DNA of 64,000 nucleotides from Heterodontus francisci (Eukaryota): the NCBI RefSeq assembly GCF_036365525.1, contig NC_090405.1, positions 33,982,224 through 34,046,223 on the forward strand. Reading direction: 5' to 3'. The notes beneath the pieces are model-generated. The model was not told the origin of the DNA, searched no databases, and was given only the letters and a program-made list of their open reading frames with translations. Made by a program: the position numbers and the translations under genes. Position 1 is the stretch's first letter; each line of letters starts with the position of its first letter. Positions 56,206 through 64,000 of this stretch are shown piece after piece.

Positions 56206-58644
56206 AGGAGTGGGGTATGGGCCAGACTTGCACCACATACAGCAACAACGTGAGCGCCTCGCACCTGATGGCCAGGTTCTTACCCACAATGGAGAAAGAT
56301 CGCTGCTCCCACATGCTCAGTTTATGGTGTACCCTGGCTACTCGCTCCTTCCAGGTTTTGGTGCACAACCCGGCCCTTCCGAACCATATCGCCAGCATCT
56401 TCAGGTAGTCTGACCTGACGGTGAAGGGGACAAAGGAACAGTCAGCCCCGTTCCCAAAGAACATCGCCTCGCTCTTGCCGTGGTTAACGTTGGCTCCCAA
56501 GGCCAGTTCAAACTGGTCACAGATGCTGATCAATCTGCAAACCGACAACAGATCCGAGCAGAAGATAGCGACGTCATCCATGTACAGGGAGGTTTTAACC
56601 TGAGTGCCTCCGCTGCCTGGGATTGTCACCCCTCTTATGCCCGCATCCTTCCTATAAACTCAGCAAAGGGTTCAATACAGCAAACAAACAAGACAGGGGA
56701 GAGAGGGCAGCCCTGTCTGACTCCAGATTGGATCGGGAAACTTTCTGATTCCCAACCATTGATTGAGACTGCACTACTGATGTTTGTGTAGAGCAGTTTG
56801 ATCCAATTGCAGATTCCCTCCCCAAACCCCATTTTGGAGAGCATGTCCATCATGTAGGTGTGCGATATCCTGCCAAAAGCCTTCTCCTGGTCCAAGCTGA
56901 TGAGGCAGGTGTCCACCCTCTCATCCCGTACATAGGCGATCGTATCTCTGAGTAGCGCAAGACTATCAGAGATCTTCCTGCCGGGCACAGTGCAGGTCTG
57001 ATCAGGGTGAATCACCAACACCAGAGCAGACTTGACTTGACTGGCGATGACTTTGGACAGAATCTTGTAGTCAACATTAAGCAGTGAGATGGGCCGCCAA
57101 TTTCTGATTTCTGCCCTCTCCCCCTTCCGCTTGTAGATGAGGTGATGATGCCTTTCCTCATGGATTCTGACATGCTGCCGGCCAGGAGCATACTCTCGTA
57201 TACTTCCAGCAGGTCTCGGCCGACCCAGTCCCACAGGGCCGAATACAACTCAACCGGTAAGACATCGCTTCCGGGAGTTTTACTTGTCTCGAAGGACCTG
57301 ACGGCGTTTGTCAGCTCATCCAGAGTTAGCGGCTTGTCCAGTCTCTCCCTCATGGTGTCATCTAAGACCTCTGTGATAGATGACAGGAAGGATTGGGAGG
57401 CTCTGCTGTCTGTGGGCTTCACGTCGTACAGCCCAGCATAGAATGATTTGTTGATCCTTAGTATGTCGGACTGCGAAGACGTTACCGAGCCATCCTCTTC
57501 CTTCAGGCTGCTGATCAGAGCTCTCTCTGTGTACCTTTTGGAAGAAGTAACATGAGCACGTCACATCCTGCTCAACGGAGCGGACTCTGGACCGGAAGAT
57601 GATCTTGGAGGTCTCCGTGGCAAAGAGCGAGGTCTGCTGGCTCTTCACCTCCTTGACCTCGACCCCCATCGACTGCAGCCGGAGCAGATTTTGCATAATT
57701 TTCTGGAGTTGGGATATTTCCCTCTGTCTCTCTCTCGCCCTCTGAATACCTTTGAAGATAAAGAACCTCTTGATGTTCTCCTTGATTGTCTCCCACCAGT
57801 GAACTGGAGACTCAAAGAGGGGTTTCACGGTTCTCCAACCTGTGTAATCCCTTTTGAGTTCCTCAACGTTCTCTGGGGTTAGCATTGTAGCATTGAGCTT
57901 CCATGTCCCCCTGTCAACCCGCTGGTCATCCGGTAAGTGACAGTCGGCCAGTAAGAGGCAGTGGTTGGAGAAGGACACCGGCTTGACGTCGGTGGATCTG
58001 ACCGTGACAGCACGGGACACAAACAGGAAGTCAATCCGGGAACGGGCAGACCCGTCCGATCTTGACCATGTGTATCTGCGCTGCGCTCCGTCTGCAGGTT
58101 TGCTGAAGACATCGTGCAGTTTGGCATCTTTTGCTGTTTCCATTAGGAATCTGGACGTAGCATCCAGTTTGCTGTCGTCTCTGCCGGATCGTCCAGCTGC
58201 ATCAATGATGCAGTTGAAGTCACTGCCTAGAATGACCGGCCTGGACGTCGCCAGCAGCAGTGGGAGCTGCTGGAAGACGGTCAGCCGCTCGCTGCATTGA
58301 ACCGGGGCATACATGTTGATCAACCGGAGTGGAGCATTGTTGTACATTACATCTGCTACGAGGAGGCGACCGCCCACCACCTCCTTAACTTGGGAGATGG
58401 TGAAGTTACCTCCCCGCAGCAGAATACCCAGGCCGGAGGAACGGGAATCATTACCCCTTGACCAGATCGATGGCCCGTGGGACCACCATCACAACCATTG
58501 CTTGTAGGTGCTGAGATGTGGTATTCCACACTCCTGCAGCAACAGTAGGTCGGCTTTGATCTTGGCGAGGTAATCCAAGGTTGAAACACATCGTGTAGTG
58601 GATTTAACGCTACTCATGTTAATTGAAGCAATCTTTATACCCAT
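56206..58644 (-). mobile_element. Tx1-clade retrotransposon copy C, ORF2 (APE + RT), frameshifted, 3' end missing
   Basis: MGIKIASIN, LLLQECG, ILGSDFNCI, SRIDFLFVS, NWRPISLLNVDYKILSK, GVRQGCPLSP, LYMDDV; homology to copy A stops at 56206. Confidence 0.93.
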
Positions 58645-58649
58645 TTTTA

Positions 58650-60345
58650 AGTTAGTTGTTGCTTCGCACACCATTTGTCCTTGCTAGTCCCAGTCCTTCG
58701 GTATCTTTCCCCTTGAAAACATCACTGCTCCCAGCTTCCCGGAGCTGGAGTGCGCCCGACGCTTCTCCGGTGTCCCGGAGCTGGGATGTGCTGGGCATGT
58801 CGCTAGGTCCAACGCTTTGGGTTTGGGGTGCGGGGCCCATCACAGCTTCCAATGCCCCAGAGCTGGGGGGGCTTTATCTTCCAGCTCCTTTGAGTTCTGC
58901 CGCTTCTTTTGGGGGTGCCGTTGTTCCGGCCCTTCCTCGTCCAGTGAGGAGGAGCTGCTGTAGTCTGTCTCAGACGGTAGCCTCCTCTTTCCAATGGTTT
59001 GGGTGGTGGCCTGTCCTTTTTTGGAGGTTTTTTCTTTGTGGTTTTCCTTTGTACCACCTGCCACTGACCAGTTTATCCATCTGCTGCCTCCTCCTCCATT
59101 GATTCTGTCTGTAAAGGAGGGATTTCCGGGTGCAGGGTAGGTGTTGGGTCACTGGTTTCAGCTGCCTCCCCTTTCTTCTCCTTCTTAGGTAGACTTTCCT
59201 AGCTGCGGGGAGGGTTGCTTGTCTCCTTCCCAGTACCAGACGTGTTCACCGTTCCTTCTCCCAGCCTTTCCTTAGACCTTGCCGCCTCAGCATAACTGAG
59301 GCAGGTTTTGTAGAGGTGGCCTGCCTCACCGCACAAGTTGCAGCACTTACTCTGCTTACAGTCCCTGGTCTGGCCTTCCTTCTTGCAAACAACTGTGCTG
59401 CAGTTAGCTGCCACGTGACTAGATTTGCCACAGGTGCGACAAACTCTGGGTTGCCCTGCATAGGCCAAGAAGCCTTGATTTCCCCTGATAGTGAAGCTGG
59501 AGGGAGGATGGATGATTGCTCTGTTGGCTTCGACCTTCAGGGTCACCTTGACCTGCTGCTTGCTGATCCAAATCCCAAAGGGGTCCTTGACATCAGTGCT
59601 GCTGCCGGCCACCTCGACGTACCTGGTGAGGAAAGTGAGTATATCCACGACAGGAACAGGGGGGTTATAGAGGTGAATTGTCACCACCTAGATTCATAGA
59701 GAGATACAGCACTGAAACAGGCCCTTCAGCCCACCAAGTCTGTGCCGACCAACAACCACCCATTTATACTAATCCTACATTAATCCTATATTCCCTACCA
59801 CATCCCCACCATTCTCCGACCACCTACCTACACTAGGGGCAATTTACAATGGCCAATTTACCTATCAACCTGCCAATCTTTGGCTGTGGGAGGAAACCGG
59901 AGCACCCGGCAGAAACCCATGCGGTCACAGGGAGAACTTGCAAACTCCACACAGGCAGTACCCAGAACTGAACCCGGGTCGCTGGAGCTGTGAGGCTGCA
60001 GTGCTAAACACTGCGCCACTGTGCCACCCACCCGGTCACATTGCGATGGCAGTGTGAAGAGTGGCTCCACTGTGAGGATCGACAGTGGCACCTGGTTTGC
60101 CTTCTCCTTGAACACCTTCAGGAACTTGATGCATCCCGCCACATTCTTGAAAGTCACGTCGAAATATCCACTGCTGGGGAAGTCCTGCAGGCAGAAGATG
60201 TCCGCAGCTTGGAATCCACAACAATGAGGATTTTATTGATGAAGAAGGTACAGTCAACCGGTGCATCTCCATCCTTATCCTTCACCACCACCTGAACGGT
60301 GTTACGCACTCCCTGGCTTGAAGCTCTAGAATTGGTTACAGTCAT
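58650..60345 (-). mobile_element. Tx1 copy C, ORF1 (ZCCHC3-like, CCHC knuckles), disrupted
   Basis: ATG at 60345; IFCLQDFPSSGYFDVTF, YAGQPRVCRTCGKSSHVAANC, CNLCGEAGHLYKTC. Confidence 0.9.
59689..60027 (-). mobile_element. HE1-type V-SINE nested in Tx1 ORF1
   Basis: Splits ...PSQCDR|VVTIHLYN...; short ccacc duplication at both ends. Confidence 0.9.
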
Positions 60346-60383
60346 TTTACTCAAAACCTACCTGGAACAGGAGCAAAGGCCAC

Positions 60384-60415
60384 TGATCATGGTCTCTCCC
60401 CTGCCAGGTAAGTAT
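60384..60415 (-). ncRNA. RNU1: U1 snRNA 5' fragment (nt 1-32), not a complete gene
   Basis: ATACTTACCTGGCAGGGGAGAGACCATGATCA, 31/32 identical to the canonical vertebrate U1 5' end, starting exactly at U1 +1. Confidence 0.92.
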
Positions 60416-60432: not shown

Positions 60433-60829
60433 TGTTGGGGTTGTTTTTCAGTCCATTGTGCAGTTTTACTTGGAGCTGGTGTACTTGGTCACTGCCTTTG
60501 CCCCTTCCGACACGGCGTGCTTGGCCAGCTCCCCGGGCAGCAGCAGGCGCACGGCGGTCTGGATCTCCCGGGAGCTGATGGTGCTGCGCTTGTTGTAATG
60601 GGCCAGGCGGGAAGCCTCACCCATGATGCGCTCGAAAATATCGTTCACAAATGAGTTCATGATGCTCATGGCCTTGGAGGAGATGCCGGTGTCGGGGTGA
60701 ACCTGCTTCATCACTTTGTAGATGTAGATGGAGAAACTCTCCTTCCTCGTCTTTCTCCGCTTCTTGCCGCCCTTTGCTGAAGGTTTACTCACAACTTTCT
60801 TGGCACCCTTCTTAGCAGCTGCTTTCTAC
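60433..60829 (-). pseudogene. H2B: Histone H2B pseudogene (no ATG, no 3' stem-loop)
   Basis: [53 protein letters not shown]...AVTKYTSSK*; preceded by an in-frame TAG and the Tx1 poly(A); substitutions at normally invariant sites (ESF, ERIMG, EGAK). Confidence 0.93.
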
Positions 60830-61983
60830 TTTTTTTTTTATTTCCAAAATATGCTTTATTCATAAAAATCTGTAAAAATTACATTCCCAAACAGTTTAAA
60901 CCAGCATCAAGTCAAAAAATACAAACAGTGCAAAGGTGAACAGTTTCCTTCTATACAATCATGAGTTGCCTCACAACCCTTCCATTTCATTGTCATGCCA
61001 TATACATTTTTACATTTACAGCACACAAAATTTTCCCGATACAGTTCGAGGGGTTTCCCCTGGATCCAGCTCCTCAGTTCAGCTTGGTGGGGGGACCTTA
61101 CACTGTGGTCTTTCCCCATTGAGCCTTTGCTGCGGCTGCCCCAAACTTTAGTGCGTCCCTCAGCACGTAGTCCTGGACCTTGGAATGTGCCAGTCTGCAA
61201 CATTCGGTGGTGGACAACTCTTTGCGCTGGAAGACCAGCAAGTTTCGGGCAGACCAAAGGGCATCTTTCACCGAATTTATAGTCCTCCAGCAGCAGTTGA
61301 TGTTTGTCTCGGTGTGCGTTCCTGGGAACAGCCCGTAGAGCACAGACTCCTGTGTTACAGAGCTGCTTGGGATGAACCTCGACAAAAACCACTGCATCTC
61401 TTTCCACACCTGCTTTGCAAAGACACATTCCAGGAGGAGGTGGGCGACCGTCTCTTCCCCACCACAGCCAACGCGGGGGCACTGTGCGGAGGGGGCAAGA
61501 CTTCGGGTGTGCATGAAGGATCTGACGAGAAGGGCCCTTCTCACCACCAGCCAAGCTACGTCTTGGTGTTTGTTTGAAAGTTCTGGTGATGAGGCATTCC
61601 GCCAAATGACTTTGACGGTCTGCTCGGGGAACCATCCGACAGCATCCACTGTCTCCTTTTCCCGTAGGGCCTTGAGGACATTCCGTGCAGACCACTGCCT
61701 GATGGACCGGTGGTCAAAGGTGTTTTCCCGCAGAAACTGCTCCACGAAGGATAGGTGGTACGGCACGGCCCAACTGCTTGGAGCATTCCGCGGCAATGTG
61801 GCCAAGCCCATCCTTCGCAACACCGGGGACAGATGGAACCTCAGCACGTAGTGACACTTGGAGTTTGCGTACTGGAGGTCTACACACAGCTTGATGCAGC
61901 CACACACGAAGGTGGTCATCAGGATGAGGGCCACGTTGGGTCCATTTTTCCCGCTCTTATCCAGAGATTTGAACATCGTGTCC
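60830..61983 (-). mobile_element. Tx1 copy B: 3' part of ORF2, 3' UTR and poly(A)
   Basis: Open frame DTMFKSLDK...CPRVGCGGEETVAHLLLEC...WGKTTV* (stop at 61098), AATAAA at 60860-60855, A10 at 60839-60830. Confidence 0.95.
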
Positions 61984-64000
61984 TTTTTTTTTATTTCCAA
62001 AATATACTTTATTCATAAACATCTGTAAAAATTACATTGCCAAACAGTTTCCAAACAGCACCAAAAAATACAAACATTGATCGGGAGATCAGTTTCCTTC
62101 AATACTGTCATGAGTTTCTTCCCAACCCTTCCGTTTCACAATTGTCATGTCAATTACAGTTTTACATTTACAGCAATTGAGAATATTAAGGATACAGTTC
62201 AAGGGGTTTCCCATTGATCCAGCCCCTCAGTCTAGCTTGGTGGGGGAACCTTACACTGTGGTCTTTCCCCATTGAGCCTTTGCTGCGGCTGCCCCAAACT
62301 TTAGTGCGTCCCTCAGCACGTAGTCCTGGACCTTGGAATGTGCCAGTCTGCAACATTCGGTGGTGGACAACTCTTTGCGCTGGAAGACCAGCAAGTTTCG
62401 GGCAGACAAAAGGGCGTCTTTCACCGAATTGATAGTCCTCCAGCAGCAGTTGATGTTTGTCTCGGTGTGCGTCCCTGGGAACAGCCCGTAGAGCACAGAC
62501 TCCTGTGTTACAGAGCTGCTTGGGATGAACCTTGACAAAAACCACTGCATCTCTTTCCACACCTGCTTTGCAAAGGCACATTCCAGGAGGAGGTGGGCGA
62601 CCGTCTCTTCCCCACCACAGCCAACGCGGGGGCACTGTGCGGAGGGGGCGAGACTTCGGGTGTGCATGAAGGATCTGACGGGGAGGGCCCTTCTCACCAC
62701 CAGCCAAGCTACGTCTTGGTGCTTGTTTGAAAGTTCTGGTGATGAGGCATTCCGCCAAATGACTTTGACGGTCTGCTCGGGGAACCATCCGACAGGATCC
62801 ACCGTTTCCTTTTCCCGTAGGGCCTTGAGGACATTCCGTGCAGACCACTGCCTGATGGACCGGTGGTCAAAGGTGTTTTCCCGCAGAAACTGTTCCACGA
62901 AGGATAGGTGGTACGGCACCGCCCAACTACACGGAGCGTTCCGCGGCAATGTGACCAGGCCCATCCTTCGCAACACCGGGGACAGATAGAACCTCAGCAC
63001 GTAGTGACACTTGGAGTTTGCGTACTGGGGATCTACACACAGCTTGATGCAGCCGCACACGAAGGTGGTCATCAGGGTGAGGGCCCCGTTGGGTACATTT
63101 TTCCCGCCCTTGTCCAGAGATTTGAACATCGTGTCCCTCCGGACCCGGTCCATTTTAGATCCCCAGACGAAGCGGAAAATGGCTCGGGTGACTGCCACGG
63201 CGCAGGAGTGGGGTATGGGCCAGACCTGCACCACGTAGAGCAACAACGTGAGCGCCTCGCACCTGATGACCAGGTTCTTACCCACAATGGAGAGAGATCG
63301 CTGCCCCCACATGCCCAACTTTTGTCGTACCTTGGCTACTCGCTCCTCCCATATTTTGGTGCACGCCCCGGCCCTTCCGAACCATATCCCCAGCACCTTC
63401 AGGTAATCTGACCTGACGGTGAAGGGGACAAAGGATCGGTCAGCCCAGTTGCCAAAGAACATGGCCTCGCTCTTGCCGTGGTTAACTTTGGCTCCCGAGG
63501 CCAGTTCGAACTGGTCGCAGATGCTCATCAGTCTGCGCACGGACAGCGGATCCAAGCAGAAGACGGCGACGTCATCCATGTACAGGGAGGTTTTGACCTG
63601 AGTACCTCCGCTGCCTGGGATTGTCACCCCTCTTATGCTCGCATCCTTCCTAATAGACTCAGCAAAGGGTTCAATACAGCAAAAAAACAAGACCGGGGAC
63701 AGAGGACAGCCCTGTCTGACTCCAGATTTGATCGGGAAACTTTCAGATTCCCACCCGTTGATTGAGACTGCGCTACTGATGTTTGTGTAGAGCAGTTGGA
63801 TCCAATTGCAGATTCCCTCCCCAAACCCCATTTTGGAAAGCACGTCCATCATGTAGGTGTGCGATATCCTGTCAAAAGCCTTCTCCTGGTCCAGGCTGAT
63901 GAGGCAGGTGTCCACCCTCCTGTCCCGTACGTAGGCGATCGTATCCCTGAGTAGCGCGAGACTATCAGAGATCTTCCTGCCGGGTACAGTACAGGTCTGA
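61984..64000 (-). mobile_element. Tx1 copy A: uninterrupted ORF2 (RT + C-terminal zinc finger), 3' UTR and poly(A); continues beyond the window
   Basis: Frame open from 63999 to the stop at 62251 with LDQEKAFDRISH, GVRQGCPLSP, LYMDDV; AATAAA at 62013-62008; A9 at 61992-61984. Confidence 0.96.

Follow-up and report, generated by a model that had tools for sequence, protein, structure and literature searches.

A Tx1-family retrotransposon in a shark genome with U1 and U2 snRNA heads and leaders predicted to fold over them

The window, a stretch of 64,000 nucleotides of Heterodontus francisci DNA, contains a dead copy of the 5' end of a Tx1/Keno-like LINE that begins with a piece of U1 snRNA, and its leader is predicted to fold back over this head. 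The family later exchanged the U1 head for a U2 head, and its leader then gained predicted pairing with U2. The explanation to which we lean, as somewhat probable, is that source copies reside in snRNA genes and that the leader has been selected to fold over the head, hiding an arm active in splicing. With the masking and stability readings taken together, selection of leader-head pairing at the RNA level is probable. This explanation is drawn from one lineage in one genome, and all structures are predicted.

The window copy lies on the minus strand. Its head (60384..60415, read from 60415 to 60384) is followed by a 38-nt leader and by a decayed ORF1 (58650..60345, end approximate) whose ATG is at 60345-60343. 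ORF2 (56206..58644, minus strand) is also decayed and is 3'-truncated; it was assigned to an APE endonuclease and a reverse transcriptase by Pfam on an intact copy and by Tx1-labelled relatives. A later insertion of ~340 bp, a dispersed repeat, interrupts ORF1 (59689..60027, minus strand). Its sequence is repeated elsewhere in the genome and is missing from other family copies, where element position 388 is followed directly by 728; it may be SINE-like. Just upstream of the head, in the flank outside the element, is a histone H2B reading frame without its start (60466..60825, minus strand), and this flank, which is not a U1 promoter, rules out the window copy as an insertion in a U1 gene. Farther upstream are two tandem 3' ends of the same Tx1 family (60830..64000, minus strand), one 5'-truncated (60830-61983) and one the tail of an upstream duplicate (61984-64000). 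At 60825-60840 a Tx1 poly(A) tail adjoins the H2B frame, a few codons past the missing start. The window copy and its upstream twin (L074) are 7028 bp apart and have identical heads and H2B flanks; we counted them as one insertion. The twin is a mosaic with an old ORF1 and a young ORF2, which suggests unequal crossing-over between Tx1 copies.

The family element is 5.3 kb long, has two ORFs and encodes its own proteins. In an intact relative (L073), ORF1 encodes 508 aa, with zinc knuckles and RNA-binding domains of the ZCCHC3 type (Pfam), and ORF2 encodes 1135 aa, with APE and reverse transcriptase domains, an organization that agrees with LINEs of the Tx1 clade. Among named proteins, those closest to ORF1 (88-97%) carry the label Heterodontus francisci, and relatives occur in other sharks and in rays. 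Matches to ORF2 include one labelled transposon TX1 protein (39%), and none of the protein matches bears the name Keno. Copies have poly(A) tails; of the 12 young copies whose tail was located, 8 have target duplications. The length and coding capacity separate the family from SINEU, which is short and non-coding.

The 32-nt head corresponds to U1 nt 1-32 and ends within the loop of U1 stem-loop I. It agrees with the U1 genes of this genome at 32/32 positions in 11 of the 12 genes examined and at 31/32 in the twelfth. An Rfam scan of the window at the gathering score gave no match, and with only nt 1-32 present the head is neither a U1 gene nor a U1 pseudogene. The 76-nt piece 60340-60415 (minus strand) is predicted to form a single long hairpin from 60413 to 60356 (-31.6 kcal/mol, z -4.09), a stability reached by 0/200 shuffles of this piece. 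When only the leader was shuffled and the U1 head was kept fixed, 0/300 sequences reached the energy of the window and 2/300 paired the arm equally well. A hairpin between leader and U1 head had been proposed here by a sequence-only reading, and these results bear it out; the pairing stands at the position given, but a predicted U-G closing pair leaves a loop of 5 nt instead of 7. Three arms of the leader, all on the minus strand, take part in the fold. The inner arm (60375..60383) has U1 nt 19-27 as its predicted partner and the middle arm (60368..60373) U1 nt 13-18, both assigned from the fold and from an alignment of the O, B and A leaders described below. The outer arm CCAGGTAGGT (60356..60365), which resembles a splice donor, lies in the predicted fold opposite U1 nt 3-12, the arm that binds 5' splice sites.

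The middle helix (CAGGGG with CTCCTG), also claimed in that reading, is present in the window, but the C that perfects it is a minority state in the subfamily: by hand count of 100 listed among 216 matches, this site is GAT in 83/100 and GCT, the window state, in 3/100. Because of this minority C, the hairpin of the subfamily (A1) consensus is slightly weaker than that of the window (-29.7 kcal/mol, reached by 4/300 head-fixed shuffles). The head also supplies an ATG at U1 nt 26 (window 60373-60390, minus strand), at which a 5-codon upstream ORF begins in the consensus leaders of B, A and the U2-headed copies. This ORF could tune ORF1 translation; the minority C of the window abolishes its stop.

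A DNA search for the family gave 2377 candidates, of which 40 were scored. Exact matches to U1 nt 1-21 numbered 132; 100 of them were listed, and the 84 dispersed ones were read. Dispersed copies start at U1 nt 1 and have unrelated flanks, so the U1 head belongs to the family. Alignment of family copies placed the arm in the consensus as well, which refutes the alternative of a private fold-back or snap-back at the window insertion. At position -1, these 84 U1-headed copies show an excess of C, the base that precedes U1 genes, and of G (chi-square p 1e-4). At L071, L145, L148, L160, L167 and L181 the head is U1-like but differs in stem-loop I, and in some cases it is stacked on a second head; this variant may come from a variant U1 gene or from another family. 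In contigs of public runs over 60030-60380, an interval that leaves the head outside, family sequence was present in 4/4 runs (three presumed RNA), and no joint was seen at the donor-like site; transcript starts, strand and absence are not readable from such contigs.

Together with loci from the DNA search and from the youngest subfamily, the locus set comprised 116 loci, with an ORF1 start in 111 and 108 distinct (L049, L135, L145, L163 and L167 were dropped). These 108 fall into O (n=6) and B (n=16), both with long leaders, A1 (n=52, the type of the window), A2 (n=12), A3 (n=7), A4 (n=10), one U2-headed young type and 4 unplaced loci, two of which were later treated as B. A1 is over-sampled because the first 30 loci were picked by likeness to the window. 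Subfamilies were ordered by consensus distances, a 270-nt tree being too weak, and ORF1 distances give the order O, B, A1, A2, A3, S1-S6 and active. The ORF1 consensus distance from B is 0.044 for A1, 0.052 for A2, 0.062 for A3 and 0.079 for the young type, and within-group divergence down this order is 0.091, 0.054, 0.041, 0.036, 0.031 and 0; A4, at 0.042, is a side branch. Since the order runs from A1 to A3, complementarity rising from A3 to A1 is ruled out.

The leader had initially been taken as a direct antisense copy of U1. The alignments point elsewhere: it derives from sense U1 and an older leader via deletion and substitutions. In O the head continues as U1 to ~nt 45, with a rewritten stem-loop I loop that is able to pair with the head; for the first 46 nt, predicted arm pairing is 0.79, versus 0.35 for true U1. 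In B a fresh U1 1-32 was placed before the older sense U1 head, and this older head is the decayed raw material of the arm, modified by deletion and point changes. Loss of ~130 nt from B, at a CCTG microhomology, then gave rise to A and joined the far end of the leader to the head; in the deletion product arm pairing is already predicted at 0.70. Between B and A1, three outer-arm changes, all stabilizing (-4.5, -1.0 and -1.1 kcal/mol), raise it from 0.70 to 0.95, and four further changes within the first 66 nt are close to neutral. The outer arm of the window consists of the far end of the long B leader with these three substitutions. Its middle arm traces to the rewritten loop of the older sense U1 head and contains the CCTG of the deletion, and its inner arm is the junction plus a remnant of the older U1 head. 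A short leader made by splicing of the long one is ruled out, as the joint retains bases that splicing removes and sits at the CCTG microhomology.

Predicted arm pairing above 0.8 was found per copy in 38/41 A1, 1/12 A2, 0/7 A3, 1/10 A4, 2/18 B and 2/6 O sequences. In the full-length O and B consensus leaders, arm pairing is not significant (matched by 54/100 and 10/100 shuffles, respectively). A2, A3 and A4 lost outer pairs; their predicted arm probabilities are 0.78, 0.72 and 0.63, and 40/300, 116/300 and 87/300 head-fixed shuffles fold as well. On these models, the window type (A1) is the peak state, and later U1-headed subfamilies retained only the helix core, which weakens the case for a strict need for the full hairpin. 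The loss of outer pairs notwithstanding, the lineage still thrived.

The youngest subfamily carries U2 1-53 at its 5' end, and its copies are 99-100% identical over the queried 281 nt. A pattern admitting only states between U1 and the young type found 256 junctions of U2 with the old U1 piece, of which 100 were listed and 50 read. They define multi-copy stages S1-S6, with ORF1 distances to active of 0.030, 0.022, 0.020, 0.017, 0.010 and 0.008; each stage consensus is based on 4-14 copies, and S0 is a hypothetical stage. Along these stages the old U1 piece changed at nt 9, 16, 18, 22, 3, 13, 14, 12 and 8. Seven of the nine substitutions stabilize the duplex with the U2 head, versus ~26% of possible single changes (binomial p 0.0016). 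In 1500 trials, 0.4% (S6) to 3% (active) of equally large random sets match this, and shuffled heads match in 3/600 cases by energy and 24-38/600 by pair count. In the 20-pair U2 helix, where 16 pairs were present before any change, mismatches fell from 4 to 0; none of the nine changes creates a mismatch, and the last substitution weakens the duplex by 2.3 kcal/mol. Since S1 the old U1 segment has 7 changes in 16 nt versus 12 in 110 fourfold sites (p 0.0009), the tested 23-nt segment having been chosen after the fold was known.

From S1 to active, predicted head-leader pairs rise from 11.9 to 19.4; the ensemble energy of the whole leader goes from -39.0 to -38.3 over 126 nt. The predicted share of U2 head bases paired to anything increases only from 0.59 to 0.66. 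The predicted duplex spans U2 nt 2-10 and 25-37, which include the parts that pair with U6 and recognize the branch site. Rewriting of the distal arm to pair with the U2 5' end is ruled out, since such pairing has a probability of 0.00-0.01 when the full head is folded. The anti-U1 arm decayed once the family had acquired its U2 head: donor-like sites are present in B and up to S5a, and S5b, S6 and the youngest lineage no longer have the GT. On the question whether copies without the U1 head keep the antisense arm, the lineage that lost the intact U1 arm lost the anti-U1 arm too, in agreement with the sequence-only reading. In three older-type copies (L030, L157 and L179) U2 sequence directly precedes an intact U1 head; these are apparent head captures that founded no large subfamilies, unlike S1, in which nt 9 is changed.

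Copies inside snRNA genes are candidates for the source of both heads. In the U2 array, the five copies examined all have the structure U2 1-53, element, poly(A) and then U2 from nt 35-38, and they lie behind the same upstream sequence as intact U2 genes. Two young copies stand in tandem in a promoter-bearing U1 gene in which U1 nt 38-52 are duplicated, and both ORFs of the first copy are intact. A second U1 gene holds a truncated copy, and an older insertion in this U1 site recurs at four loci. Among 30 loci read, 3 were intact U2 genes, 5 were copies in U2 genes, 2 were copies in a U1 gene and 20 were dispersed. Twenty dispersed young copies, taken from the best matches, all start within U2 nt 1-4, 13 of them at nt 1. 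None of 36 near-identical promoters was found to belong to a U1 gene with an A-type leader. Young copies, both full-length and truncated, are densely inserted in the U2 array (L130-L134; G000:C41), and the intact U2 genes between them are ~577 bp apart; flanks of several intact U1 genes (L031-L042) contain older pieces of the Tx1 family, 65-80% identical. With intact copies located behind U2 and U1 promoters, a co-transcript, as first suggested from the window alone, is plausible. Insertions in U2 genes keep a single head and the U1-gene insertion keeps both, which is consistent with cDNA annealing to target sequence upstream, the mechanism proposed for R2 (PMC3774820); we infer both steps of this route to a new head.

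In the explanation we lean to, source copies inside U1 and U2 genes are likely transcribed from the snRNA promoter, with transcription beginning at the snRNA start, and the host gene would renew the head at each insertion. Because of this renewal, the head would hardly drift and only the leader would adapt. A copy landing in another snRNA gene would acquire a new head. Masking of the splicing arms would be the purpose of the fold, and the benefit would be an mRNA that neither pairs with splice or branch sites nor is handled as an snRNA. Life behind an snRNA promoter would have a testable cost, an mRNA that starts with a splicing-active arm. Masking is favored because head-leader pairs rise while whole-leader stability does not, and because the old U1 arm took on mutations after it had ceased to be the renewed 5' end. 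Selection at the RNA level is probable because G-U pairs were tolerated and the pairing gained is specific to the head now carried. Counting against the explanation are the weak folds of A2, A3 and A4 and of the full-length O and B leaders, the 16 U2 pairs and the 0.70 arm pairing that preceded the substitutions, the weakening by the last substitution, the small rise in paired U2 head bases, the choice of the segment after the fold was known and the lack of an A-type leader among the promoter-bearing U1 genes read. Pairing was gained in three episodes, in O, from B to A1 and after U2 capture. A bolder form, that a cis antisense mask over an unmutable snRNA head re-evolved three times and that the U1 arm was rewritten as anti-U2 last, is tentative; that the old U1 head, the short-leader U1 head and the U2 head each had such a mask is likewise possible, somewhat short of probable. 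If true, the genome keeps each step of the mask as a dated subfamily.

Other readings account for parts of these data. The selected fold could be a generic structured 5' end that protects the RNA or aids the 5' junction and hides no arm; a stable 5' fold raises the insertion efficiency of R2 templates, according to the consulted portion of PMC11331408, and the predicted pairing covers most of the head, not functional arms only. We regard this as unlikely, given that the ensemble energy barely moves from S1 to active while head-leader pairs rise (11.9 to 19.4), and that three changes fall in the old U1 splice-site arm, two of which weaken or do not help the duplex. Selection would be dispensable altogether if template-switch (quasi-palindrome) mutation in replication or reverse transcription had perfected an imperfect inverted repeat. 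Such mutation is able to create and repair RNA stems (PMC8794818, in the sections seen), six of the nine post-U2 changes make Watson-Crick pairs, and two adjacent changes arose almost together. A perfectly complementary outer-arm variant also exists, a candidate for the oldest short leader, with ancestral states counted at 12/108 versus 90/1143 (L045 and L242 being one locus). Templating would not, however, yield the three of nine changes that make G-U pairs, two of them from Watson-Crick pairs, and the changes were fixed in separate steps. Nor do mutations in dead copies favor the perfecting site strongly: among the 100 matches listed, where most positions are fixed by the search pattern, C-to-T changes number 8 at the perfecting site and 5 at the neighboring one, and the three changes at a mismatched A number 3, 3 and 3. 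We consider this origin improbable.

Binding of U1 in trans had also been proposed, and the donor-like site might bind the U1 snRNP, helping long transcription from the snRNA promoter or drawing U1 RNA near for template jumps. The site fits a 5' splice site, perfectly so in a minority of copies, persists from B up to S5a, and heads were added repeatedly (L060, L160 and L181). Against this, the A1 site is predicted to be occupied in cis (0.95), the GT is absent in S5b, S6 and the youngest lineage, and U1-gene insertion accounts for new heads by itself. Trans binding is at least not required, because the youngest lineage lost this GT, and we hold such a role to be quite improbable. A last reading is that layered snRNA fragments are partly self-complementary by inheritance and that chance and drift did the rest. 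The high starting complementarity, the weak folds in O, A3 and A4 and the post hoc choice of the tested region agree with it; yet the rate is raised only in the U2-pairing segment (7/16, with 13/63 for the whole post-U2 leader), no mismatch arises from any of the nine changes, and the gain depends on the real base order of U2. Chance and inheritance alone are therefore very improbable.

Selection for a leader that covers the head can be set beside several known systems, and the subfamily ladder offers a rare stepwise record of an RNA helix tuned to a new partner. Keno, of the Tx1 clade, was reportedly described by Kojima and Fujiwara in 2004 as U2-specific. Its target site lies 37 nt into U2 (PMC6136364 and PMC4640811, consulted in part). 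Like Keno, the shark family is an APE-RT LINE, and its 3' flank in U2 genes is the published Keno target (PMC6136364, same portion): the five youngest-subfamily copies in U2 genes and truncated copies all have this 3' junction. Unlike Keno, it also enters U1 genes, is mostly dispersed and carries snRNA heads to new sites; with 20 of 30 loci read dispersed and 2 in a U1 gene, it lacks the U2-gene specificity of Keno. The consulted parts of both Keno texts describe no leader-head pairing. The shark family works like Keno, and we do not claim strict membership.

In R2, upstream 28S sequence forms part of the P1 stem of a ribozyme. R2 and the shark family, as interpreted here, have in common co-transcription with the target gene, 5' sequence taken from the target and paired with element sequence, seamless junctions formed by annealing and duplicated target pieces that decay with compensatory change (PMC3774820, in the parts seen, for R2). 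The R2 pairing builds a self-cleaving HDV-like ribozyme (same source and extent), whereas the predicted shark fold is a simple hairpin; an Rfam scan gave no match to an HDV-like 5' ribozyme. Unlike that of R2, the RNA of the shark element would start at the snRNA cap site.

Crocodilian Tx1-Mar families with U1 and U2 heads, and SINEU, form a further parallel (PMC4494074, here and below from the portion consulted). Tx1-Mar co-clusters with Keno and, like the shark family, is a Tx1 LINE with U1- or U2-derived 5' ends and recurrent head addition. Its heads were ascribed to template switching. The text seen does not contain the terms stem, secondary structure or complementary, and Fig. 1B and the supplements may hold similar leaders. 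In the literature covered, with subscription papers and Repbase entries outside its scope and sources seen in part, we found no fold-back pairing in such elements. The transcription of snRNA-headed retroposons was left open in PMC4494074, and here the shark family offers intact source copies in U2 and U1 genes. It differs from the crocodilian families in these source copies and in a leader that tracks the head.
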